Assembly (NCBI GenBank): GCA_049423385.1
Contig: JBMSQQ010000102.1
Coordinates: 1-11,454, forward strand
Length of the DNA stretch: 11,454 bases
DNA from: Silvanigrellaceae bacterium
GTDB taxonomy: Bacteria > Bdellovibrionota_B > Oligoflexia > Silvanigrellales > Silvanigrellaceae
Reading direction: 5' to 3'
The position numbers and the translations under genes are program-made. This document shows, piece by piece, positions 1 to 11,454 of this stretch; position 1 is the stretch's first letter; each line of letters starts with the position of its first letter. The notes beneath the pieces are model-generated. The model ran no database searches. It saw only the letters and a list, made by a program, of their open reading frames with translations, and had not been told where the DNA came from.

Positions 1-402
1 GGCATCACGGTTGTGCATCGCCTGCAACATCATTTGAACAGCATGACCAATTGTGTGCGCGGCCCGCTCCTGAGGAAGCGCCTTTTGCATTCCAACATCC
101 AGAGAAAAGGCCACCGCTCGCATATTGTTTGACCGGTAAATCATGAAGCGCTGTACTTCAGAACCCATAGCACTTCGGCAGATGTTGTGATGAAAACGCG
201 TCGTCTCGGAACGCTCAAACCCTTCGAGCGAGTGAACGACAACCCTCGAGCCTGTGGAACTCAAAAGGCCATCGACATCCGCGATGTTCTCTGTCGCATG
301 AACTTCGAGTTCTGCATTTTTCAACGACCGAAAATAAAGAGCGCTGTTGGCATTTTTCTTGCACAACAACACGGCCTTTCGCTCAATCTTGCCGTCGGCC
401 AT
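1..402 (-). CDS. Partial protein (runs off the left edge) with an N-terminal degenerate receiver (REC)-like domain
   Basis: Not in the ORF track; translated by hand. ATG at 402-400 follows a G-rich RBS (GGGGGGGAT). The frame is open to base 1: MADGKIERKAVLLCKKNANSALYFRSLKNAELEVHATENIADVDGLLSSTGSRVVVHSLEGFERSETTRFHHNICRSAMGSEVQRFMIYRSNNMRAVAFSLDVGMQKALPQERAAHTIGHAVQMMLQAMHNRDA. The alternating beta/alpha pattern resembles a REC fold without the acidic pocket. The coding call is firmer than the domain call. Confidence 0.6.
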   Translation of the reverse strand, partial: MADGKIERKAVLLCKKNANSALYFRSLKNAELEVHATENIADVDGLLSSTGSRVVVHSLEGFERSETTRFHHNICRSAMGSEVQRFMIYRSNNMRAVAFSLDVGMQKALPQERAAHTIGHAVQMMLQAMHNRDA

Positions 403-435
403 ATCCCCCCCGGATTCTCACGGCTCCGGTATGTG

Positions 436-462
436 GATTCGGCAATACAAAAACGAACTTGA
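436..462 (-). promoter_or_regulatory. Putative sigma28 (FliA)-type promoter for the 402..<1 gene
   Basis: The minus strand reads TCAA-N15-GCCGAATC against the consensus TAAA-N15-GCCGATAA. It lies in the intergenic gap 33 nt upstream of the ATG. Confidence 0.5.
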
Positions 463-468
463 GAGGGT

Positions 469-1488
469 TCACAATGCCAGCAATGCTGCTCCCAATCCCC
501 CTGCAGAATCGCCCAGTTGGTGCTGATAGACGGGTACCCGGCTGTCGGGAAGGAAGGTATGATGCGAAAGCGCCTCGGAGAGCCCCTGATAGATGGATGG
601 CTGTAAACTCAGACCTCCGCCCAACACAAAGTAATGAGGGTCAAAAACAGAGGTCAGGCTGCCGAGGAATCGGGCCAGGTCGCTCCTGTACCGCGCCACC
701 ACAGCCATTGCTGCAGGGTCGGAGGCAGCTGCCTTTTCAAAGATTTCTTTCGCGGAAAGGGGCGCAGGCCCCAGCTGGCTGTAATGCCGTGTGGCCATCA
801 ATGACTCTATTCCAGGGCCCGACAAGTACTGCTCCGCACAACCTGACTGGCCACAATAGCACTGGTGACCATCACGGTAGAGGATGGTGTGTCCCAATTC
901 GCCACCGCCGCCACGCGAACCTTGGACCGTTCTGCCATTGATGACAATTCCACCACCACAACCGGTGCCAAGAATAATTCCCACAGACGTTTGCGAATGG
1001 ACACTCACACCGGTTTTCTGTTCATGCATCAGCCCTGCACCACAGAGAGCTTCAGCCAAGGCAAAACAGTTGGCATCGTTCTCAGCCCGCATGACCACCG
1101 ACGAAGGCAACTTTGCCTTGCGCCGAATGTCGCCCAACAGATCCTGGTTCACCAGAACCATCGTGTTGCCGTTGAGCATGCGGAATGTTTTGGGGTCAAT
1201 CGAGCCAGGAAGTCCAAGGCCGATCCCATGAAGATTTTTTTCATCAACACCGGCAGAGGACAAGGTCGAAGTGATCAGTCCCACCATTTTCTCAACGATG
1301 GCCTGATAACCTTTGTGCCGTTCGGTGGGTTCGCGCATTTTTGCAAGGACCTGGCCATGAAGATGGCCAGAAACGGGATGCGCGCATACGAAAGCATCAC
1401 CCGTCTTGCTCTGCGACGCTTCTTTTTCAAGGCGAAAAAGGGTGGCTTCGATCTTTGTTCCACCCACATCGAAACCCATCAGAAACAT
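469..1488 (-). CDS. ROK family sugar kinase (Mak/NagK-like)
   Basis: Motifs GFDVGGTK (phosphate-1), GLGLPG, ENDANCFALAE, ILGTGCGGG, and the Zn motif GELGH...CYCGQSGCAE. No N-terminal HTH. Start placed at ATG 1488, whose RBS GAGGG overlaps the pyrE stop; the ORF track extends to 1515. Confidence 0.92.
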   Translation of the reverse strand: MFLMGFDVGGTKIEATLFRLEKEASQSKTGDAFVCAHPVSGHLHGQVLAKMREPTERHKGYQAIVEKMVGLITSTLSSAGVDEKNLHGIGLGLPGSIDPKTFRMLNGNTMVLVNQDLLGDIRRKAKLPSSVVMRAENDANCFALAEALCGAGLMHEQKTGVSVHSQTSVGIILGTGCGGGIVINGRTVQGSRGGGGELGHTILYRDGHQCYCGQSGCAEQYLSGPGIESLMATRHYSQLGPAPLSAKEIFEKAAASDPAAMAVVARYRSDLARFLGSLTSVFDPHYFVLGGGLSLQPSIYQGLSEALSHHTFLPDSRVPVYQHQLGDSAGGLGAALLAL

Positions 1489-1498
1489 GTTTTTTCCC

Positions 1499-2167
1499 TC
1501 AATCAATTGAATCATTCATTGCGCTGAAGCCTTCCAGCCAGGCCAAGACTGTGCGCAGTTCGGACTGGGAGATCAAGCCCATGCCCTTGGCAACTTCAAG
1601 AATCTGCACTGTTTCAAACAGAGCCACAAACGGCAGATTGATGCTCTCGAATTTCCGGTGCGACGACGGTATCGCATGTGTCGTGACCGTCGTCGACATC
1701 ACCATCCGGGTATCCAGCTGACGCAAGACTTCAACCGACTTGAGCACGCTCTGACCGGTTGTCATCATGTCATCGACGACCACATGCGGTTTGCGCGGAT
1801 TGAATTCCCCTTCAACCATCTGTTGCAAACCGTGACCTTTTGGCTTTTGGCGCACATAAATGAATTCGCAATCCCATTGATTGGCAAGAGCCATGGCGGG
1901 CGCAATACCGGCGGTTGCCGTTCCGGCAAAAACAACATCGCGCGGAAGGCAGCCCAGATTTTTCAGCTCTGACTCAATTTTTTGGGCCCAGATCGTCACC
2001 AGATTCTTGCGCAGCACTGGATTCGTGAATGCGCGACGATGATCGAGATATATGGGTGCCTTCGCTCCACTCGACAAAACGAAGGGGCTGGAAGCATCGA
2101 CCTTGATGACACCATGATTGAAAAAAAGATCCACGACTGTGGATTCAGGATTTTTGCTGTTGGTCAT
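1499..2167 (-). CDS. pyrE: Orotate phosphoribosyltransferase
   Basis: Motifs FVLSSGAKAPIYLDHR, ATAGIA, flexible loop YVRQKPKGHG and PRPP loop VVVDDMMTTGQS. Start placed at MTNSK (2167), overlapping the upstream gene by 23 nt. Confidence 0.9.
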   Translation of the reverse strand: MTNSKNPESTVVDLFFNHGVIKVDASSPFVLSSGAKAPIYLDHRRAFTNPVLRKNLVTIWAQKIESELKNLGCLPRDVVFAGTATAGIAPAMALANQWDCEFIYVRQKPKGHGLQQMVEGEFNPRKPHVVVDDMMTTGQSVLKSVEVLRQLDTRMVMSTTVTTHAIPSSHRKFESINLPFVALFETVQILEVAKGMGLISQSELRTVLAWLEGFSAMNDSID

Positions 2168-3371
2168 TCCTGTTTTCCCGTGAAGAAAATTTAATACCCA
2201 GGCGTTGAGCACATTCACTTGCGAACTGGAGATTCCACATTGCAGCTGTTGCAACATGCACAACGTCTGCTCCTGCCTTCAAAAACGCTTCAAAATCGTC
2301 AACCGTGGTGCAGCCACCAACACCCACAAGCGCAAAACTTCTACTGTCGAGTCCCAAACTCCTGCGGCACCGGCTCAACTTTCCGATCATCTGGATCGCC
2401 TCATCGCGGATAGCAGCGCCACAGACTCCGCCATGTGCGGATCCGGATCCAAGTGCACGTTCACCTGCGGGAGTTACGATATTCGCACTCACCGTATTGA
2501 TCGCACTGATTCCATGCGCATATTTTGCAATCACTTCGACGGTTGACAAAATATTTTTTTCCGGGACCACGCCCAACTTGATGACAAGTCTCATTTCAGG
2601 AAAATCGGTCAATGCTTCGGACGCTGCGCGCACAGTTTCGGTGAGTGCTTTCAGGTCGGTGAAAATCGGCGCACCCGCCTCGTTCGGACAACTCACGTTC
2701 ATTTCGAGGAGGGAACCACCTGCAGCGCGAACGCATTGAGCGGCAAGCCTGGCAGTGGTGGACGTGTCGAGCAAAAAATCACTCCAGGGTCGGTTTTCCA
2801 GGCGAGAGCCCTGAAAACTCAGGACAGTCATCTTCCCTTGCGAAAAAGCACCCGGCAACAACCGGGAGAAATCCTGGCCCCACTCTTTTGGAGACAAACT
2901 GGGAACGCCAAAAGCATTGGTGATGCTCAGCCGTGACCTGAGCTCACTGTCGAGAAGGTCCTCGGCTCGAAGCGGAACCACTTCAACGGTTGAACGAAAG
3001 TTTTCTCCAGGGTTTGCATTGCGCAGCTGAAAATCGCATCCAACCAGCCTTTCGGGGCAAGCGGCTGAATCCTCATTTGAAAGGAGATTTTGGATTCTCA
3101 GGACATTGGGCCATGGATGACTCTGCCATGAACAGCTGCGCACCGTTTTATAAACCGGCATGCAAAAGCCAGCCTCCAGAGCAACATCAACGTAGGCTGA
3201 AGACAACAACGGCCCTGCCGGCATACCCAACGGAAGATGCAGCGGCACATCGAAAACTCCGAACTGCGGTGCCTGTTCAAAACGCACCACTGGAAACAGC
3301 CCATCCCTGTTCCAAACAGACGACGGGCCATTGCGCAGGTTCTCTTCGTAACTGGCCAGAGGATTATACAT
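2145..3371 (-). CDS. pyrD: FMN-dependent dihydroorotate dehydrogenase-like protein (class 1-like, catalytic Cys)
   Basis: Motifs PAGP, YKT (FMN-binding Lys), ITNAFG, EMNVSCPN (catalytic Cys loop), IKL, AINT, GGVCG and VGVGG. Directly upstream of pyrE. The ATG overlaps the upstream stop (TGATG). Dihydropyrimidine dehydrogenase subunits share these motifs, so the substrate rests partly on context. Confidence 0.78.
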   Translation of the reverse strand: MYNPLASYEENLRNGPSSVWNRDGLFPVVRFEQAPQFGVFDVPLHLPLGMPAGPLLSSAYVDVALEAGFCMPVYKTVRSCSWQSHPWPNVLRIQNLLSNEDSAACPERLVGCDFQLRNANPGENFRSTVEVVPLRAEDLLDSELRSRLSITNAFGVPSLSPKEWGQDFSRLLPGAFSQGKMTVLSFQGSRLENRPWSDFLLDTSTTARLAAQCVRAAGGSLLEMNVSCPNEAGAPIFTDLKALTETVRAASEALTDFPEMRLVIKLGVVPEKNILSTVEVIAKYAHGISAINTVSANIVTPAGERALGSGSAHGGVCGAAIRDEAIQMIGKLSRCRRSLGLDSRSFALVGVGGCTTVDDFEAFLKAGADVVHVATAAMWNLQFASECAQRLGIKFSSRENRNDQQQKS

Positions 3372-4387
3372 CAGGCGAGCCCCAACACCCGCCGACCGTT
3401 TTCGGTTGCAATTCGAATCAATTCCGCCGAGTCGTAAAAATGGGTGGCCTCGAGAAGCATCCTGAGTTCCACCATCGGGTCGCCATCAGCAAATGGTTTG
3501 TAGATGTCCGAGATATTGTCGGACCCGATGGCCACACACAATCCCGCAGGAATCATCTCGTCGATCGGTGTGATTGCATTGTGGGTCGGAGTCAGAACTT
3601 CGTTGCGCCGTGCATCCAGCCAGGCTCCAGGACATGCAACGAAACTCAATCCGGCATCATTGCAAAGTTTGTAGAGCTCTTGTCGATATGACTTTGGTTG
3701 GCAACCAATGCTGATGCCATGAACTGCGGTCACCTTGCCTTCCAGACCATGACGAATCACGGTTCGGGCAAGCTGTTCGGTTTCACGTTCATTTGGATCG
3801 TTGTTTTGATCGACGTGCACATGCACGCGCTTGCCCGTCGCCTTCGCAGCTGACAGAAGCACATCAAGATGTTCCTGCTCTCGTCCTCGATCTGCACCGG
3901 GCAGACCACCAATCACGTCGACGCTTTCCAGCGACTTCTCGAAGAATTGCCGCGCTTCCTCGTTCAAAACACCCTTGAGCGTTTGGCACGCAAGCACAAG
4001 TTTCATTTGCAATTGTTGGGACGCGTATTCTTTTGCACGCAAGGCTGCGTCGAGTGCACGGGTGCCAGCAACCGGGTCGCAGTCAATGAAAGTGAGTGCC
4101 AGACGCACACCGAATTCATGTTGCGCCCGCAGTGCGGATGTGATGTGTGCAAAATAGTCGTCTTCGCTGGCCGACTTCTTCCACGCATCAACCAACTGCC
4201 ACTTTTCCTGCAGCGGGCGTTCCACAACCGCGTCCAACGCGATTGATGATTGCCCCAAAACTGGCTGACCCATGGGCAGATCGGCCGGAGTCACCGAATA
4301 GGCCCTGTCGAAATGCGCATGCGCATTCACGAAACCGCCGGCGGAAATGATCTTTTGCCGCAACTGGGCCAATGGCATCCAGAACAT
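3371..4387 (-). CDS. Metal-dependent amidohydrolase, cytosine deaminase (CodA)-like barrel, substrate unknown
   Basis: Motifs FVNAHAHFD (HxH), HVHVDQ, VTAVHG and IGSDNISDIYKPF align with CodA HIHLD, DVHCDE, VTASH and FGHDDVFDPWYPL. Start is ATG 4387 (7 nt after GGAG) or ATG 4390 (overlapping the argG stop). Confidence 0.85.
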   Translation of the reverse strand: MFWMPLAQLRQKIISAGGFVNAHAHFDRAYSVTPADLPMGQPVLGQSSIALDAVVERPLQEKWQLVDAWKKSASEDDYFAHITSALRAQHEFGVRLALTFIDCDPVAGTRALDAALRAKEYASQQLQMKLVLACQTLKGVLNEEARQFFEKSLESVDVIGGLPGADRGREQEHLDVLLSAAKATGKRVHVHVDQNNDPNERETEQLARTVIRHGLEGKVTAVHGISIGCQPKSYRQELYKLCNDAGLSFVACPGAWLDARRNEVLTPTHNAITPIDEMIPAGLCVAIGSDNISDIYKPFADGDPMVELRMLLEATHFYDSAELIRIATENGRRVLGLA

Positions 4388-4389
4388 CA

Positions 4390-6051
4390 TCAAACTCCAT
4401 TCATCAGGGCTGGCTTTTGTTGCTCGCCACGCGCAGCAATGGGCTTGCGGGCCTGTGTTTTGAGCCGCTCGCAGATGTTCATCAAGACATCATATTCACT
4501 GACCAGCTGAACACCGTTGATGACGCTCCATTTGCGAATTTCCGTCCCATCTCGCACTTCAACGTTGTTGTTTTCAGGGCTCATCACATTGACGATGAGG
4601 TCAAAGCGGTTCTGCTTCAGCAGGTCGAGCAGGTTTGGCTTCTTGTTTGAATCCGAAACTTTGTAGACGCAAACGGCAGGCACGCCAGCCTTTTGCAGGA
4701 CCGCATGTGTGCCCTCGGTTGCAAAAAGAACAAATCCACTGTCGGCAAGCTTGGAAACCAATGGCAAAAACCGCTGCTTCTGCTCTGTGCTGCCAATCGA
4801 AATAAGTGCATAACGCTCTGTTTCACGGGCCATGCGCATCTGCATCGTGTAAATCTCGGTGAATGCAGCAGACGCATTCTGGTTGAACGCATTGCTCTTC
4901 ATGAACGTTGCCAGTTTTTCATCAAACAAACTGTTTGGAGTCTCAACAGCAACAGTTTCTGCACGCCCCTTGAACAGGCGCAACGTCACTGTTCCAGTCA
5001 CTTTTTCGTTCACGGCATCAACGTACATATTGAGGTTGTGCATCAGTGGTTCATACCATTGCGCACCATAGCAGAGGTAACCCCATTTCTGGTCAACAAG
5101 AGTCTTGAATTCGTTTTCCTGGCGGGTGCAGACGTATTTTTCGAGAGTCTCGTGCGCACGGACAATGATGGTTGCAGCCGGCGCTTCATAGATACCGCGA
5201 ACCTTCAATCCAACAACCCGATCCTCAATGTGGTGGGTCACACCAACACCATGGTTTGCACCCATCTCGTTCAACTGCGCAATGAGTGGTACAAGTCCCA
5301 TGTCCTGACCGTTCAGCTGAACGGGAAGCCCCTTGAGGAAGCCAATCGTGATCGTCGTCGGTTCGTGAGGAGTTTCCTCGATGGGCTTGCAGATCTGAAG
5401 AATATTCTTGAGAGGTGGAACGAGCGCGGGGTTTTCGATTTCGCCACCCTCTGCAGAGATTCCCCACATGTTGTCGTCGTAGCTGTAGGGTGAATCTGCA
5501 GTTTGTTTGACCGGTATGTTGTGCTGACGCGCGTATTCCAATTCTTCGTCGCGGCCCATTCCCCACTCGCGCACGGGTGCGATGATCTTCATTTCTGGAG
5601 CCAGCGTCAGGATGCTCCCTTCAAGCCGAACCTGATCGTTTCCTTTGCCTGTGCAGCCATGTGCAATGCAGTCGCAGCCTTCCGCGCGCGCAACATCGAC
5701 GGCAAGCTTCGCCAACAAGGGGCGACCCAGCGGTGTCGCAAGGTGATAGTCACCTTGATAACGCGCGTTTGCCTTGATTCCTTTGGCCAGGTACTCGTAG
5801 GCAAATTCGTTTTTCGCATCCACAACCACAGCCTTGATGGCTCCAAGGCGAAGCGCCTTTTGACGAATTTCCTCGAGGTTGTCTGCCTGCTGACCAATAT
5901 CGATGGTCAGGGCGATGACTTCTGCCTGGTATTCATCCTGAATCCATTTGAGCATCACGCTGGTGTCGAGTCCGCCCGAGTAAAGGAGAACCACTTTGCG
6001 GATTTCACCCTTGCGACCTTCATATGAGGAAACCTTCATGTAATTGTTCAT
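4390..6051 (-). CDS. argG: Argininosuccinate synthase with a C-terminal MGS-like (CarB allosteric-type) domain
   Basis: Motifs LLYSGGLDTS (PP-loop), TPLGRP, HGCTGKGNDQVR, APVREW, YSYDDNMWGISAEGG and EDRVVGLKVRGIYEAP. About 140 extra C-terminal residues include ATEGTHAVL, YKVS, PNLLDLLK, DLIVN and DGTEIR. Start at ATG 6051, with GGGAGGT 9 nt upstream. Confidence 0.92.
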   Translation of the reverse strand: MNNYMKVSSYEGRKGEIRKVVLLYSGGLDTSVMLKWIQDEYQAEVIALTIDIGQQADNLEEIRQKALRLGAIKAVVVDAKNEFAYEYLAKGIKANARYQGDYHLATPLGRPLLAKLAVDVARAEGCDCIAHGCTGKGNDQVRLEGSILTLAPEMKIIAPVREWGMGRDEELEYARQHNIPVKQTADSPYSYDDNMWGISAEGGEIENPALVPPLKNILQICKPIEETPHEPTTITIGFLKGLPVQLNGQDMGLVPLIAQLNEMGANHGVGVTHHIEDRVVGLKVRGIYEAPAATIIVRAHETLEKYVCTRQENEFKTLVDQKWGYLCYGAQWYEPLMHNLNMYVDAVNEKVTGTVTLRLFKGRAETVAVETPNSLFDEKLATFMKSNAFNQNASAAFTEIYTMQMRMARETERYALISIGSTEQKQRFLPLVSKLADSGFVLFATEGTHAVLQKAGVPAVCVYKVSDSNKKPNLLDLLKQNRFDLIVNVMSPENNNVEVRDGTEIRKWSVINGVQLVSEYDVLMNICERLKTQARKPIAARGEQQKPALMNGV

Positions 6052-6085
6052 CAGCGCTGGACCTCCCGCAAACAGAATTTCAGGC

Positions 6086-6111
6086 AAAAAAAAACCCGCT
6101 CAACGCGGGTT
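6086..6111 (-). terminator. Intrinsic terminator, possibly an attenuator, just upstream of argG
   Basis: The minus strand reads AACCCGC-GTTGA-GCGGGTT-TTTTTTT: a 7-bp stem, a 5-nt loop and 9 consecutive U after GCGGG. It ends 34 nt before the argG ATG. Confidence 0.85.
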
Positions 6112-6122
6112 AAAATTTAATA

Positions 6123-6182
6123 TCAGGTGGGGTTTGGAGTCCCTTCAGCATGCACGTCTTGAACAGCGAACACCACAGGCAT
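6123..6182 (-). other. Possible 19-aa leader ORF (MPVVFAVQDVHAEGTPNPT)
   Basis: ATG at 6182 with AAGGGG 9 nt upstream; TGA at 6125-6123, 11 nt before the terminator stem. Short enough to arise by chance. Confidence 0.3.
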
Positions 6183-6239
6183 CTCTACCAACCCCTTCGA
6201 AAATCTTTCGTAAAGGGCTACGGGAGTCTGGTGGGAATG

Positions 6240-7541
6240 TCAAGACGCCTTCTTGATGGACGCATCGTCTTTGGCTGCTTCCGTTGAGTTCTTTTGGTCA
6301 ACAGAAGGCACCGGAAGTGGGATCGATGACATGGGCGCAGGCTCAACCGCTGGGAACTGTGCCTTGATCTCGAGAATTTCGTCGAGGTTGTCGAAAAAGA
6401 TGTCGACAATTTCTGGATCAAAGTGGCTACCGCTGCAGTTGCGAAGCTCATCGAACACCTTGTCGATTGGCCATGATTCCTTGTAGACGCGCCGTGAACA
6501 GAGCGCATCGAAAACATCGGCAAGAGCAACAACCCGACCCTCTGCCGGGATGTCTTTGCCCTTCAGGCCACGTGGATATCCGGTTCCATCCCAACGTTCG
6601 TGATGAGTGTAAGCAATCACCGCACCCATCTGAAGGAATGGTGAATCGGCGCCACGCAAAACTTCATAGCCTTTCACCGTATGCAGTTTCATGATTTCAA
6701 ATTCTTCAGGAGTCAGCCGTCCTGGCTTCTTGAGAACGGCGTCTGGAGTCGAAATCTTTCCAACGTCATGCAACATGGCCGCCAGCCTCATGACTTCGCA
6801 GGCAGCATCATCGAAGCCCAATTGTCGATACAACAACACGCTGTAACGACTCATTCGTTCGATGTGTCCACCCGTGTCTGTGTCATGGTATTCCGACGCC
6901 TTCACGAATTTCTTCACTGTCTCAATGCGGGACTGGCGCAAATCCTGGGCCATGCGCAGATTTCTGAGCACCACGCCGCACTGGCTTGAAAGAGCGCGCA
7001 GATAGGATTCAACCTTGGCCGGAAACGGAGACACTTCACCGCTGAAGTTCTCACCCATCAGGTGGTTGATAAGCTGCAGGACCCCCAGAACGTTTCCGCG
7101 CGAGTCGCACATCGGGATCACCAGCATGGATCTGCTGCGATAATTGGTCATGATGTCGAATGACGGATTGAACGAAAAAGGAGACTCCGATGGCAGATTA
7201 TAAACATCCTGAATATTCAGGGTTTTTCTGGACGAAGCGGCAAATCCGGCAGCAGTCTTGAGGTCGATCGGCAGCGTGTAATTTTTCAGCGCTGCCTTGA
7301 CTCCGCGGGCCTCGAGCACCCGGTTTCGGGTCAGCACAAACCGAAGTTGGTTTCCATCCGCCTCGTAAACTGTGCACCCTTCGCAATTACCCATAATCAA
7401 AGCAGTATCTGCCATAAGGCTCAGCAGCTCACTGGCATCGTCCATCTCGCTGAGAGCCAAACCGCTTTTTACAAGCAGGTTGAGATAGTCGATTGAATCT
7501 TCAGCATCCTGGACGCCAGGATTTTGTTTGTTCTCGGCCAT
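6240..7541 (-). CDS. GAF + HD-GYP domain protein, probable cyclic dinucleotide (c-di-GMP) phosphodiesterase
   Basis: N-terminal GAF (AGFAASSRKTLNIQDVY...FNPSFD...YRSRSMLVIPM...VLGVLQLIN). HD-GYP motifs DTDTGGHIERM, LHDVGK, KPGRLTPEEF, HHERWDGTGYP, ADVFDAL and RVYK. GAGG RBS upstream. Confidence 0.93.
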   Translation of the reverse strand: MAENKQNPGVQDAEDSIDYLNLLVKSGLALSEMDDASELLSLMADTALIMGNCEGCTVYEADGNQLRFVLTRNRVLEARGVKAALKNYTLPIDLKTAAGFAASSRKTLNIQDVYNLPSESPFSFNPSFDIMTNYRSRSMLVIPMCDSRGNVLGVLQLINHLMGENFSGEVSPFPAKVESYLRALSSQCGVVLRNLRMAQDLRQSRIETVKKFVKASEYHDTDTGGHIERMSRYSVLLYRQLGFDDAACEVMRLAAMLHDVGKISTPDAVLKKPGRLTPEEFEIMKLHTVKGYEVLRGADSPFLQMGAVIAYTHHERWDGTGYPRGLKGKDIPAEGRVVALADVFDALCSRRVYKESWPIDKVFDELRNCSGSHFDPEIVDIFFDNLDEILEIKAQFPAVEPAPMSSIPLPVPSVDQKNSTEAAKDDASIKKAS

Positions 7542-7614
7542 TCACAACCTCATTCCAGCAGCCGTCGATGCACACGCATGCATCATCTCCCCAGAAACGG
7601 CTCCATTCGATCCG

Positions 7615-7641
7615 GTATCGGAACTCTTTGGCCCGGCTTGA
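7615..7641 (-). promoter_or_regulatory. Putative sigma28 (FliA)-type promoter for the HD-GYP gene
   Basis: The minus strand reads TCAA-N15-TCCGATAC against the consensus TAAA-N15-GCCGATAA. It has the same TCAAG -35 and spacing as the site at 436-462. Confidence 0.5.
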
Positions 7642-7805
7642 GCCTGGTTGCGAACATTTCCTGACATGACACTTCGACACTTCCTTGCCGCCGGTGAGAA
7701 ACCTGCCAAGCCACTTGTCTTTTTCGCCTGATACGGACTATGTAGGGGGCGTTCCGCAGACTCCGAACTTCACCTGATTTTTTTTTCCTCCCGACGAGGT
7801 GATTT

Positions 7806-9416
7806 ATGATTGCGAGATACAGCCGCCCGGAAATGTCCAAGCTTTGGTCCGAAGATTCAAAATACATCTCATGGTCTCGGGTTGAACGCGCACATTTGGA
7901 GGCCCTTGTGGAACGCCGGGGAGTTCCCGCGGCAGTTCTTGCAGCATTCGACAGCGCCATCAAAAAAACCAACGCGGGCGACTATCTCAAACGCGAAGAG
8001 GAAACCGGACACGACGTGATTGCCTACGTTGCGGAGGTGGGCGAAGCCATGGGCGACGCCGGACGCTGGCTGCATCAAGGCCTCACAAGTTCGGACGTGC
8101 TCGACACTGCCTTGAGTTTGCGCCTTGGTGAAAGCCTTGAACTGCTGCGCAAACCTCTGTTTGCCTTGCGGAAGGCTCTTGCCAAGCAAGCCTTCAATCA
8201 CGTCAACACGCCCATCATGGGTCGCACCCACGGCATACATGCCGAACCTTTGTCGTTTGGCCAGGTCCTTGCGGGACATTTTGAAGATTTTCAGCGCGCA
8301 CATGTTGAACTTGTTGAAACACAAAAGCTCTGTTCAACCGGAAAAATGTCGGGTGCCGTTGGCCAATATTCACAGTTGACTCCGGAACACGAAGCACACG
8401 TTCTGAACAAGCTGGGTCTCACGCCCGAGCCGATTGCGACGCAGGTCATCCCGCGCGATCGCATCCTGCGCGTTGGTCATGCCTGTGAAAGTCTCGCCAA
8501 CGCCATCGAACGATTTGCGGTCAACATGCGTCATTGGGCCCGCACGGAATTACAGGAAGTCATCGAACCCTTTGGCAGCAAGCAAAAAGGCAGTTCCGCG
8601 ATGCCGCACAAAAAGAATCCGGTGCTCGCGGAAAATTTGTCAGGACTCGCACGCTCCATCCGTGGGTATGTGCAGATGCTCGGACAAAACACCGCGCTCT
8701 GGCATGAGCGGGACATCTCCCACAGCAGCGTCGAACGACTGGCTTTGCCCGACATGTTCGTCACCCTGGACTTCATGACTGCGCGCTGCGCAGACCTCAT
8801 CGAAAAAATGGTTGTTCAACCCGATGTGATGAGACGCAATCTTGAGCGCCTGGGTGGACTTTGGGCCAGTCAATCGGTCCTCACCCAACTCACAAATTCA
8901 GGAATGAACCGCACGGCTGCATACGAACTTGTGCAAAAAATCGCGCTGCCGCTCAACATGCAATCTGCGCGGGAAACCCTTCCCCCCGATGCGTTTCTCA
9001 AGGCACTGGAAGCGCAGGCTTCGGTTGTCGACCTCGTTGGCAAGGACAACCTGCGCGGATTGTTCAATCTTGAGCGTTTTCTGGCCCAGACACCGACCCG
9101 GTTCCTCACAGTCTTTGGAGTGACGCCGGACGAGATCGCACGGGTTCATGGCGGACGGGTGGATGCCAGCACGGTCCCCGCGCTTCAAAAAATCCTGAGA
9201 GTCACAGTTGCCTTGCACGCAGACGTGCTCGACACCGAGGCCAAAACAATTGAAGAGCATATGCATTCGCAAGGTCTCAGTGCCCGCCTGAAACGATCGA
9301 AAGTTTTTACAATCAACGTACCAAATGAAGATGAAACAGCCTCGCTGTTGGGTTATGTCTCATCGGTCTTGCGCAATGAGGTCATGGAATCCATTCACAT
9401 GGAGGTCATTCAATGA
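7806..9416 (+). CDS. purB: Adenylosuccinate lyase fused to a C-terminal PurS-like domain
   Basis: Motifs MIARYSRPEM, HQGLTSSD, MGRTHGIHAEP, GKMSGAVG, GSSAMPHKKNP and WHERDISHSSVER. The last ~75 aa (RVTVALHADVLDTEAKTI...SKVFTI...VLRNEVMESIHMEV) match the PurS pattern. RBS GAGGTG. Confidence 0.93.
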   Translation: MIARYSRPEMSKLWSEDSKYISWSRVERAHLEALVERRGVPAAVLAAFDSAIKKTNAGDYLKREEETGHDVIAYVAEVGEAMGDAGRWLHQGLTSSDVLDTALSLRLGESLELLRKPLFALRKALAKQAFNHVNTPIMGRTHGIHAEPLSFGQVLAGHFEDFQRAHVELVETQKLCSTGKMSGAVGQYSQLTPEHEAHVLNKLGLTPEPIATQVIPRDRILRVGHACESLANAIERFAVNMRHWARTELQEVIEPFGSKQKGSSAMPHKKNPVLAENLSGLARSIRGYVQMLGQNTALWHERDISHSSVERLALPDMFVTLDFMTARCADLIEKMVVQPDVMRRNLERLGGLWASQSVLTQLTNSGMNRTAAYELVQKIALPLNMQSARETLPPDAFLKALEAQASVVDLVGKDNLRGLFNLERFLAQTPTRFLTVFGVTPDEIARVHGGRVDASTVPALQKILRVTVALHADVLDTEAKTIEEHMHSQGLSARLKRSKVFTINVPNEDETASLLGYVSSVLRNEVMESIHMEVIQ

Positions 9417-10147
9417 CCAGAAAGAACGCGGCAGTTCTTCAATTCCCGGGAACAAACTGTGACCAGGACACCTTGCGGTGGCTGGCTCGAAACCTCGACC
9501 TCGATGTCTCCTTCGTACGTTCACAAGAAGACATCGAAAAACGCCCCCCTGGACACACTTCGGTGATCATTCTCCCAGGGGGATTTTCTTTTGGTGACTA
9601 TTTGCGTGCAGGCGCCCTTGCAGCCCGCTCTCCATTGATGGACTGGGTTCGTCGGGAAGCAGCTGCCGGCGTTGCTGTTCTGGGCATTTGCAATGGATTC
9701 CAAATACTGTGTGAATCAGGATTGCTTCCAGGTGCGCTCGCTCTCAACACGATTCGCCAACACGTTCATGAATTTGTAACGATTCACGTCGAAATGTCCC
9801 TGTCATCGCCTTGGGCACCCAACCTGACATCCGGACGTTTGCTCACCCTGCCGATTTCATGTGGCATGGGAAATTTCATTGCACCCAGGAAAGAAGAAGG
9901 TTTCCGCACCTTGTTCCGTTACACGCAAAACATTCTTGGCAGCACCGAGAGTATTGCGGGCATTTCGAACCCCGAGGGAAATATTGTTGGAATGATGCCA
10001 CACCCCGAGCGTGCAAGTGATCCTGTGCTCGGTGCCACGGATGGATTGTTGATGCTCGACGCTCTCGCCGAGCGGCTGAATATTCCTGTGCGCCCCGGAA
10101 GCCCGTTGGCCATCTGGCGCGAAACCAAGGGAATACACGTTCACTGA
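9413..10147 (+). CDS. purQ: FGAM synthase glutaminase subunit PurQ
   Basis: Motifs [29 protein letters not shown] (nucleophile Cys) and GMMPHPER (His/Glu). ATGA overlap with the purB-purS stop. Confidence 0.95.
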
Positions 10148-10172
10148 AAATTTCCAGTTGAGGTTGAAATCG

Positions 10173-11454
10173 ATGTCTTCAGCTCAAGGGTCCGCAGCAG
10201 AACAAAACCGCGACGAAAAAAAATGGACTGAACTCGCCCAAGGCTTCGGACTCTCGGGCGACGAGTTCAAGTCACTCAAGGAACTCCTCAAACGCCAACC
10301 CTCTCTCGAAGAGATTGCTGTTGTCGGAGCCTTGTGGAGTGAACACTGTTCGTACAAGTCTTCACGTGTTCACTTGTCTCGCTTCCACACCAGTGAACCC
10401 TGGGTTTTGCAAGGACCCGGCGAAAATGCGGGAATCGTGGAAATTGCACCGGGAGTGGGTCTCGCCTTCAAAATGGAAAGCCACAATCACCCCAGTTACA
10501 TCGAACCCTATCAGGGTGCCGCAACCGGCGTCGGTGGCATTCTCCGCGACGTTTTCTGCATGGGAGCGCGGCCTGTCGCCAACATGAATTGTCTTCGCTA
10601 CGGTGAAGGAGTCTACAACGCTCATCTGCTCAAGCACACTGTTCGCGGCATCGGCGATTATGGAAACTCGGTTGGTGTGCCAACCGTGGGTGGACAAACG
10701 CGCTTTCACCACGGCTACTCGAAAAACATTCTCGTCAATGCCTTCACCGCCGGACTCGTCAAGTCTGATGCGATTTTTCGCGGAAAACTCCAGAACGATT
10801 CGGCGCCCGCGCAAAAGCAGGTTGCAAGCGGATTGTTGCCCGATCAGGATGTCAGTGAAAGTTCAAAAAAGAAGTTGTTCCCTCAGGGGGCAAACCTTTT
10901 GATCTATTTTGGCAGTGCCACTGGCCGTGACGGTGTTCATGGAGCAACAATGAGCTCAGACACCTTTGGCGAAACATCAGCATCGCTGAAACCAACCGTG
11001 CAGGTGGGTGACCCTTTTGCCGAGAAAAAACTTCTCGAAGTGACGCTTGAACTTTTGAAAAAGAATATCGTCGTTGGATTGCAGGACATGGGTGCTGCCG
11101 GACTCACTTCGAGCGGCGTCGAAATGGCTGGCCGTTCGGGCTGTGGGGTCGCCATCGACCTGAACCTGATTCCTGCACGCACGGCAAGGCTCAAGGCATT
11201 TGAATTTCTTTTGTCGGAATCTCAGGAACGCATGCTATGCGCCGTGACACCTGAAATGGCAGACGAGGTGCTGACTCTTTGCAGGAAGCACCAGGTGGCC
11301 GCAGCGGTGATTGGCTCGGTCAATGACACGGGCGAATTCATTTGCCTTCACAACGACAAGGTTGTCTGCGCCTTGCCGGTGGATATTCTCACCGACAATG
11401 CACCCAAATACCGTTGGCCATTACAGGATCGCAACGAATACCTGAAGCAACATT
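10173..11454 (+). CDS. purL: FGAM synthase subunit PurL (small type), partial, runs off the right edge
   Basis: Not in the ORF track; translated by hand from ATG 10173 (GAGG upstream). Motifs [64 protein letters not shown] and LSESQERM. No stop before the window end. Confidence 0.96.

Follow-up and report, generated by a model that had tools for sequence, protein, structure and literature searches.

An argininosuccinate synthase with a fused CarB-type MGS-like domain, the possible entry enzyme of an argininosuccinate-dependent pyrimidine route in Silvanigrellaceae

Introduction

Why should an argininosuccinate synthase (ArgG) end in the allosteric domain of a carbamoyl-phosphate synthetase (CPS)? 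The question is raised by a gene of a freshwater Silvanigrellaceae bacterium (GenBank assembly GCA_049423385.1, contig JBMSQQ010000102.1, positions 1 to 11,454 of the forward strand; this whole stretch of 11,454 nucleotides is the window below). A sequence-only reading of the window had proposed that this ArgG carries the MGS domain which in the Escherichia coli CPS large subunit (CarB) binds UMP and IMP, and that it is subject to nucleotide feedback as the committed step of a pyrimidine route. Here we report that the argininosuccinate synthase is complete and has an MGS-like domain fused to its C-terminus. The fusion is present in a phylum with cultured members, and a second fusion, of MGS with an amidohydrolase of the PRK06886 family, a member of which is encoded next to ArgG-MGS, exists as well. 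The genomic context points to pyrimidine synthesis rather than to arginine synthesis, as far as gene content can indicate. We favour a reading in which ArgG-MGS would be an effector-gated citrulline-aspartate ligase and the entry of an operon-encoded, argininosuccinate-dependent pyrimidine route, and we put its probability at roughly 0.55.

Results

A complete ArgG with an additional domain

The open frame lies on the minus strand (4390-6087, 565 aa) and extends upstream to a TTG at 6087; residues are numbered in this frame. Translation likely starts at the ATG at 6051, which would give 553 aa, because homologues begin at Met13 of the 565-aa frame in the alignment and a GGGAGG Shine-Dalgarno-like site lies 10 nt 5' of this ATG. 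Both peptide strings of the sequence-only reading, FNQNASAAFTEIY as the normal ArgG end and then YALISIGSTEQKQRF...DGTEIRK, are present in the translation of 4390-6087, and the span it gave for the domain (4459-4818, residues 424-543) corresponds to the whole folded domain, whose strands and helices occupy residues 425-545 in the models.

Pfam found Arginosuc_synth (aa 31-192), Arginosuc_syn_C (aa 201-419) and MGS PF02142 (aa 440-529) in the one frame, as had been predicted, the last with 56.4 bits against a gathering score of 24.1 (E 3.3e-15) and over profile positions 2-93 of 94. The N-terminal 424 residues scored 501.8 bits with NCBIfam NF001770 (equivalog cut-off 334) and 458.8 bits with TIGR00032 (equivalog cut-off 268.2). 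The ArgG body aligns end to end with Thermus thermophilus 1j1z and Legionella pneumophila 6xnq, the latter matched by the module in Foldseek at E 9e-38, and a full-length model (pLDDT 74.6) retrieves ArgG structures first and CPS next. Like the canonical short ArgGs (1j1z, 6xnq, human ASS1 2nz2), the protein keeps all motifs and passes the model cut-offs, with 37-41% identity over the catalytic module to the best structural matches and 34% to 2nz2; unlike them, it has about 140 extra C-terminal residues, and no ArgH partner in its own genome. We compared 46 fused proteins from several phyla, with domains down to 29% identical. The SGGLDTS loop (S37-S43) is invariant in all 46, and so are the positions aligned to 1j1z Y84, R92, T116, N120, D121, R124, S173, E184, E258 and Y270, which we take to be the positions that bind the substrates citrulline and aspartate. 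Judged by these motifs, the ArgG module looks intact and functional. A complex prediction of the ArgG body (aa 13-422) with the MGS domain (aa 423-548) scored 0.12, the mark being 0.32.

In principle, the fusion could have arisen as a chimera during assembly, or two genes could be read as one through a frameshift, and the junction near 4820 had been named as the place to look. Contigs from 4/4 runs of two studies, none of them flagged as a possible source, cover 4813-4830 without a joint or loose end. A word-indexed search with the MGS domain only (aa 420-565) returned 20 protein clusters, every one of which has ArgG and MGS together, and the fusion is found in all 25 family genomes surveyed and in 65 loci across phyla. 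Because independent contigs bridge the junction and the same architecture recurs in independent assemblies, the fusion is not an assembly artefact; the probability that we give to a chimera or read-through is next to nil.

At the very C-terminus stands a KPAL(L) tail, in which none of P559, A560 and L561 varies among the 17 sequences of one alignment (Silvanigrellaceae loci and near relatives); it is missing from the ArgG-MGS forms of Patescibacteria. In human CPS1 the C-tail matters for activation (PMC4655335).

The appended domain is of the CarB type

Sequence and predicted fold bear out the assignment of the domain to the CarB type. NCBIfam CarB models align aa 403-546 with CarB positions 914-1050 of 1058, and the PDB sequence matches outside ArgG are CPS chains only, led by human CPS1 2yvq (E 3e-10, 31% identity; the L4 domain, the N-acetylglutamate switch) and followed by E. 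coli CarB (E 2e-5). An AlphaFold model of the domain, built on a 46-sequence alignment (pLDDT 87.6), has as its top Foldseek matches E. coli CarB (1jdb and 1ce8, the latter with IMP) and human CPS1 (2yvq and 5dou), at TMq 0.69-0.72, a root-mean-square deviation (rmsd) of 2.0-2.5 Å and 27-31% identity. The comparison of the structure with CarB thus came out as the sequence-only reading had supposed: the fold, a five-stranded parallel sheet, is matched best by the allosteric domain of E. coli CarB (about residues 933-1073), at TMq 0.71, an rmsd of 2.2-2.5 Å and 27% identity. Ranks 1-16 are all CarB or CPS1 chains; methylglyoxal synthases first occur at rank 19, with 13-17% identity, and PurH at rank 43. 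A closer relationship to MgsA was considered and rejected, as no MgsA chain is among the PDB sequence matches up to E 1 and the fold matches are weaker than those of CPS. The domain is not the C-terminus of a CPS here and follows ArgG; unlike in E. coli CarB, it stands on a ligase of the ATP-pyrophosphatase fold and not on an ATP-grasp synthetase, and in CarB the ornithine site is formed at the interface with a further domain, which ArgG-MGS lacks.

For the putative pocket we aligned the domain with residues 933-1073 of E. coli CarB (K-12 record). The Ser, Lys, ATxGT, KV, Asn and Asp positions listed earlier all align with the CarB site: S430 with S948, K437 with K954, A456-T457-x-G459-T460 with A973-T974-x-G976-T977, K476-V477 with K993-V994, N500 with N1015 and D513 with D1025. 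Six of the seven residues S948, K954, T974, T977, K993, N1015 and T1017 are retained, T1017 being replaced by M502. The roles of K954, T974, N1015, T1017 and D1025 in CarB are reportedly those described in the structure paper on the IMP complex. In E. coli CarB, binding of UMP and inhibition by it depend critically on T977 and K993, and S948F abolishes sensitivity to both UMP and IMP (PMC6245113).

Among the 46 fused proteins K437, T457, T460 and K476 are invariant and D513 is kept in 45. These four are among only nine invariant positions of 146, a coincidence with a chance of 7e-6 if invariants fell randomly. K476 aligns to Lys in E. coli CarB and to Trp in human CPS1, the latter belonging to the N-acetylglutamate pocket. 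Fold and pocket position are shared with the CPS1 L4 domain, which, unlike the nucleotide-binding CarB, binds an amino-acid derivative; since ArgG-MGS has Lys where CPS1 has Trp, its pocket resembles the phosphate- and nucleotide-binding CarB version.

The genome also encodes a CarB of its own (1078 aa, L003:1495-4731 on contig C11, adjoining carA and the gene for ornithine transcarbamoylase, OTCase). Pfam finds no MGS domain in this CarB, and a PDB search with its last 149 residues retrieved no CPS chain. In place of S948, K954, T974, G976, T977 and K993 it has V, L, V, D, S and L, so that of the four residues invariant in the fusions three are lost outright and T977 is changed to Ser. The allosteric site of the resident CarB appears lost, and the intact sensor of this genome would therefore sit on ArgG and not on CarB. 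We also considered that the MGS domain might have been copied recently from the resident CarB, but rejected this, since BLASTP between both domains gave nothing significant. In at least five other family genomes (G001, G014, G015, G020, G024) the CarB model matches end before about position 1000 of 1052; the frames of these five are open and longer than 1000 aa.

Gene content of the genome and the family

The assembly of the window (3.47 Mb, 90.6% complete) contains one ArgG, which is ArgG-MGS. Above the cut-offs it has no ArgH (the best match, with 71.7 bits, is an aspartase), no dihydroorotase and no aspartate transcarbamoylase (ATCase). The ATCase models score 140-154 on the lone transcarbamoylase, which is an OTCase (387.9 bits vs 280.85) and adjoins carA-carB. 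The operon with ArgG-MGS holds the only DHO_dh match above cut-off in this genome, a gene like that for dihydroorotate dehydrogenase (DHODH), and the only PyrE-type match, a gene like that for orotate phosphoribosyltransferase (OPRT); a PyrF gene is also present. These data support the earlier claim in so far as it placed the enzyme in pyrimidine rather than arginine synthesis.

We then surveyed 41 related genomes, comprising 25 Silvanigrellaceae (Oligoflexia/Bdellovibrionota) and 16 others of the class (Table 1). ArgG-MGS and the adjacent amidohydrolase occur in the whole family and in none of the other genomes. ArgG normally lacks the domain, as had been assumed: the plain ArgGs of the class, found in 4/16 of the other genomes, end near residue 420. 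Three family genomes have a plain ArgG besides the fused one, in G015 beside ArgH, CarB and OTCase. Seven family genomes, one of them 98% complete in 3 contigs, show no transcarbamoylase-like match. The six without CarB, for the most part the same genomes as these seven, have retained arginine deiminase as well as the operon and PyrF; arginine can thus serve as the source of citrulline, with no need for carbamoyl phosphate.

Table 1. Genes of arginine and pyrimidine metabolism in 41 genomes of the class
Gene or match	Silvanigrellaceae	Other genomes of the class
ArgG-MGS	25/25	0/16
PRK06886 over cut-off, adjacent to ArgG-MGS	25/25	0/16
ATCase over cut-off	0/25	6/16 (two more just below)
ArgH over cut-off	7/25 (0/13 in the genus of the window)	4/16 (a fifth just below)
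DHO_dh match of at least 125 bits (canonical-scoring PyrD)	2/25	10/16
PyrF	24/25	12/16
Full-length arginine deiminase match	24/25	1 strong match
CarB	19/25	10/16

Operon, leader and neighbouring genes

The order ArgG-MGS, PRK06886 amidohydrolase, DHODH-like and OPRT-like gene is conserved in 13/13 loci long enough to show it (15 fetched). The start codon of the amidohydrolase (ATG 4390-4388) overlaps the argG-MGS stop as TGATG. Its family, NF005365 (PRK06886), is named 'hypothetical protein' in NCBIfam. Neither the metal ligands (HxH, H191/H193, H225 and D292) nor Gln196, which is part of an H-x-D-Q motif, shows any variation. The start of the OPRT-like gene is probably internal to the frame given in Table 2, because homologues align from about aa 22-43; a ROK kinase gene follows. 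The operon is also carried by a cultured member of the family, Fluviispira multicolorata 33A1-SZDP (locus L049).

All 13 family loci inspected (L020-L032) have a GC hairpin followed by 8-9 T, 21-103 nt upstream of argG-MGS. The gene upstream of the hairpin differs among genera, and the T run of one locus ends just 12 nt before the start codon. Since the T run lies close to the start with no room for a promoter, and the upstream gene varies, transcripts must cross the hairpin, which is most simply read as a leader terminator. An Rfam scan of the leader gave no family at the gathering score (best 21 bits vs 50). In E. coli, ATCase is inhibited by CTP and UTP via PyrI, and pyrBI is preceded by a leader attenuator; by analogy, a UTP-sensitive attenuator of the pyrBI kind may be suspected here, as a lead.

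Table 2. Features of the argG-MGS locus; all positions are those of the window
Feature	Position	Strand	Remarks
argG-MGS coding sequence	4390..6051	minus	553 aa from ATG 6051; stop TGA 4392-4390
ArgG catalytic module	4831..5997	minus	aa 31-419; ATP-pyrophosphatase domain with SGGLDTS and synthase C-domain; PF00764, PF20979
CarB-type MGS-like domain	4444..4821	minus	aa 423-548; Pfam match aa 440-529 at 4501-4770
Putative effector pocket codons	4549..4800	minus	by alignment to E. coli CarB
Pocket codon S430	4798-4800	minus	
Pocket codon K437	4777-4779	minus	
Pocket codon T457	4717-4719	minus	
Pocket codon T460	4708-4710	minus	
Pocket codon K476	4660-4662	minus	
Pocket codon N500	4588-4590	minus	
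Pocket codon D513	4549-4551	minus	
C-terminal tail motif K-P-A-L	4405..4416	minus	aa 558-561
PRK06886-family metal amidohydrolase (CodA-like)	3371..4390	minus	NF005365, 371.1 bits vs cut-off 340
Divergent DHODH-like gene	2145..3371	minus	408 aa; PF01180, 54.7 bits, C-terminal half only
OPRT-like gene	1499..2263	minus	frame as listed; TIGR00336, 87.7 bits, below cut-off 106.8
Leader hairpin AACCCGC-GTTGA-GCGGGTT with T9	6084..6111	minus	33 nt before ATG

Directly upstream of argG-MGS lies a gene with GAF and HD-GYP-type (HD_5) domains (6240-7541, minus strand), which has the same position in loci of the genera g1, g2 and g4 and is found about 4 kb upstream in one g3 locus. Farther along the window, 7806-9416 (plus strand) encodes an adenylosuccinate lyase (PurB) with PurS fused to its C-terminus (Pfam Lyase_1, ADSL_C and PurS), followed by purQ and purL; full-length matches to this protein (residues 1-536, PurS included) are found at the corresponding place in related loci, which belong to two genera. 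Elsewhere in the genome (L013:1351-3198, contig C8) an aspartate ammonia-lyase (752 bits) has an extra N-terminal region of about 150 aa, with weak partial matches to models of the family 2B encapsulin shell and of the Pat acetyltransferase; this region may be a nucleotide-binding regulatory domain.

Carriers outside the family and mobility of the domain

An alignment scan for the amidohydrolase yielded 80 loci, 65 of them with ArgG in the locus. All 65 ArgG matches beside PRK06886 run past residue 520 and hence carry the domain; 55 are near full length, with 58-95% identity. The survey thus extended the architecture from the family to several phyla, as the carriers include Saccharibacteria, Microgenomates, Roizmanbacteria, Paceibacterota and Woesebacteria as well as metagenome-assembled genomes labelled Pseudomonadales or Gammaproteobacteria; very small genomes are among them. 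In the remaining 15 of the 80 loci, three of them short, the amidohydrolase has no ArgG nearby (Blattabacterium, Gastranaerophilales and Bacteroidia are examples). Five carriers from other lineages had no ATCase (0/5), ArgH in one case (Fluviispira) and PyrF in four.

In a quick maximum-likelihood tree of ArgG bodies (midpoint root, with the plain sequences on long branches), a long branch with an SH-aLRT support of 98 divides the 46 fused forms from 7 plain ArgGs found in the class. Within the fused set, the 13 forms of Silvanigrellaceae make up a clade of their own (SH-aLRT 100) that lies nested among the rest, a position consistent with spread of the fused gene by horizontal transfer.

A profile of the 46 domains, run against 1.84 billion representatives, gave 2547 matches at E up to 0.001. 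Of the best 150 matches we scanned the domains of 32, picked for unusual length, and 39 proteins in all, P0023 included. A search for long proteins with the amidohydrolase covered 596-2000 aa; MGS fusions of about 480 aa lie outside this range and were found by the profile search. In addition to ArgG, this MGS type is fused to PRK06886 (P0077, 412 bits vs 340; also P0114), to a dihydroorotase-like protein (P0043), to DHODH (P0055), to CarB, CarB-ATCase (P0155) and CarA (P0158), and to a GNAT acetyltransferase (P0038). It also occurs on a catalytic core like that of asparaginyl-tRNA synthetase (AsnRS) without an anticodon domain, in P0051, P0088 and P0044 alone, in P0074 and P0034 with DHODH and a phosphoribosyltransferase following, and these AsnRS-like fusions may represent another undescribed opening of a pyrimidine-type route. 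P0023 is a 923-aa protein of PRK06886, DHODH-like and PyrE-like modules; this protein and the MGS fusions tie the amidohydrolase to later pyrimidine steps. Because this MGS type stands on several enzymes of the pyrimidine route, it behaves as a movable sensor of the pathway, and its presence on whichever enzyme acts at an early step of a pyrimidine-type route speaks for an effector at the level of the pathway rather than for a role tied to the chemistry of ArgG.

Discussion

We propose that ArgG-MGS is a working ligase that would convert citrulline, aspartate and ATP to argininosuccinate, and that its MGS domain would be an allosteric sensor of an effector with a phosphate group; nucleotides of the UMP, UTP or IMP kind or phosphoribosyl pyrophosphate (PRPP) are the likeliest candidates. 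ArgG in this genome would then not serve arginine synthesis and would be the ATP-driven entry step of the route encoded by the operon, with citrulline supplied by arginine deiminase or by CarAB and OTCase. Every reaction after ArgG is a deduction: the PRK06886 amidohydrolase would split argininosuccinate into ornithine and a compound like carbamoyl-aspartate or dihydroorotate, the DHODH-like enzyme would oxidise this compound, the OPRT-like enzyme would ribosylate it, and PyrF would decarboxylate the product to UMP. The sensor would have moved from CarB, which lost its own site, to the first enzyme dedicated to the route. Like the pyrBI system of E. coli, the locus has a sensor on the first dedicated enzyme and a leader with hairpin and U-run before the operon; it differs from that system in the enzyme, in the fold of the sensor and in the presumed intermediates.

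Several observations weigh against this reading. The gene absences rest on draft genomes, although four family genomes are 98% complete in 3-30 contigs. ArgH is present in 7/25 family genomes, and in four of these seven no second ArgG was found, so that the fused enzyme may also feed arginine there; the earlier term 'committed step' has to be qualified accordingly. Since neither the DHODH-like nor the OPRT-like protein reaches the cut-off of its family, the two may act on substrates other than dihydroorotate and orotate. The activity proposed for the amidohydrolase is put in question by Gln196, which stands in the place of the catalytic Glu of the cytosine deaminase CodA. In the pocket, the position of S948 is S in 26, T in 13 and A in 7 of the 46 fused proteins, that of N1015 is N in 35 and H in 9, and that of T1017 is P in 33; these variable positions are ribose contacts in CarB. 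Finally, the same pocket binds N-acetylglutamate, which is not a nucleotide, in human CPS1 (PMC4655335), and for this reason we only infer that ArgG-MGS is under nucleotide feedback, with regard to both the ligand and the sign of the regulation.

Other explanations of the fusion share part of this evidence. ArgG-MGS might be an ordinary enzyme of the arginine pathway, with a domain that senses ornithine, arginine or an acetylglutamate-like compound and with pyrimidine-like neighbours that are incidental. The canonical ArgG module, the family genomes with ArgH (among them those in which the fused form is the only ArgG found) and the binding of N-acetylglutamate by the homologous CPS1 domain (PMC4655335) would all agree with this. 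We consider it quite improbable, however, because ArgH was not found in 18/25 family genomes (present in 0/13 of the genus) or in 4/5 other carriers, because plain ArgG, where present, is a separate gene, which in G015 takes the place beside ArgH instead of the fused gene, because 65/65 ArgG genes beside PRK06886 carry the domain, and because K476 is Lys as in the nucleotide-binding CarB and not Trp as in CPS1. The operon might also make a base or nucleotide other than UMP, e.g., a 2-amino or otherwise altered pyrimidine from cyclised argininosuccinate, with the MGS domain sensing that product. This would accommodate the divergence of the DHODH-like and OPRT-like proteins, which fall below the family cut-offs, and an amidohydrolase without the Glu of CodA. 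On the other hand, the cluster coincides with missing ATCase (0/25), missing canonical PyrD (23/25) and retained PyrF (24/25), a pattern that fits replacement of the primary pathway, and its carriers include very small genomes; we therefore regard such a product as unlikely.

A further possibility is that the MGS domain binds no ligand and is a structural or assembly module which holds ArgG together with the amidohydrolase and the later enzymes, so that argininosuccinate is channelled. The occurrence of the same domain on ArgG, PRK06886, a dihydroorotase-like protein and DHODH in different organisms might be explained in this way, as might the overlap of stop and start codons. However, invariance falls on the aligned ligands of the pocket (K, T, T and K) and not on surface patches, and the domain serves both CarB and CPS1 as a sensor of ligands (PMC6245113 and PMC4655335), which leaves little room for an assembly role.

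The early steps of pyrimidine synthesis (CPS, ATCase and dihydroorotase) are treated as universal, and bacteria without those genes are scored as auxotrophs; a 2026 review, for instance, scores Haemophilus influenzae as a pyrimidine auxotroph (PMC13328217). A search of the full-text literature, with subscription journals and supplements outside its scope, found no description of an ArgG-MGS fusion or of a route from argininosuccinate to pyrimidines, and in the accessible part of the paper on the Spirobacillus genome neither pyrimidine nor arginine nor citrulline is mentioned. Patescibacteria are generally held to lack nucleotide synthesis. A regulated ArgG heads a conserved operon in genomes without ATCase, ArgH and normal PyrD, which suggests a second way to build the pyrimidine ring, from arginine or citrulline and aspartate. 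In its widest form, to which we give about even odds, the proposal is an undescribed de novo pyrimidine route with ArgG-MGS as its nucleotide-gated entry: the ureido unit of citrulline would be transferred to aspartate via argininosuccinate, and the amidohydrolase would release ornithine to give the ring precursor. This route would replace ATCase, possibly dihydroorotase, and the canonical DHODH in Silvanigrellaceae, many Patescibacteria and other small-genome bacteria, and its sensor would sit on the enzyme that opens it.

As Silvanigrellaceae include cultured members, isotope tracing and genetics are feasible in the family. If the proposal is true, the metabolism reconstructed for Patescibacteria and other reduced genomes would have to be revised, and an allosteric module would be shown moving between unrelated enzymes during the rewiring of a pathway.

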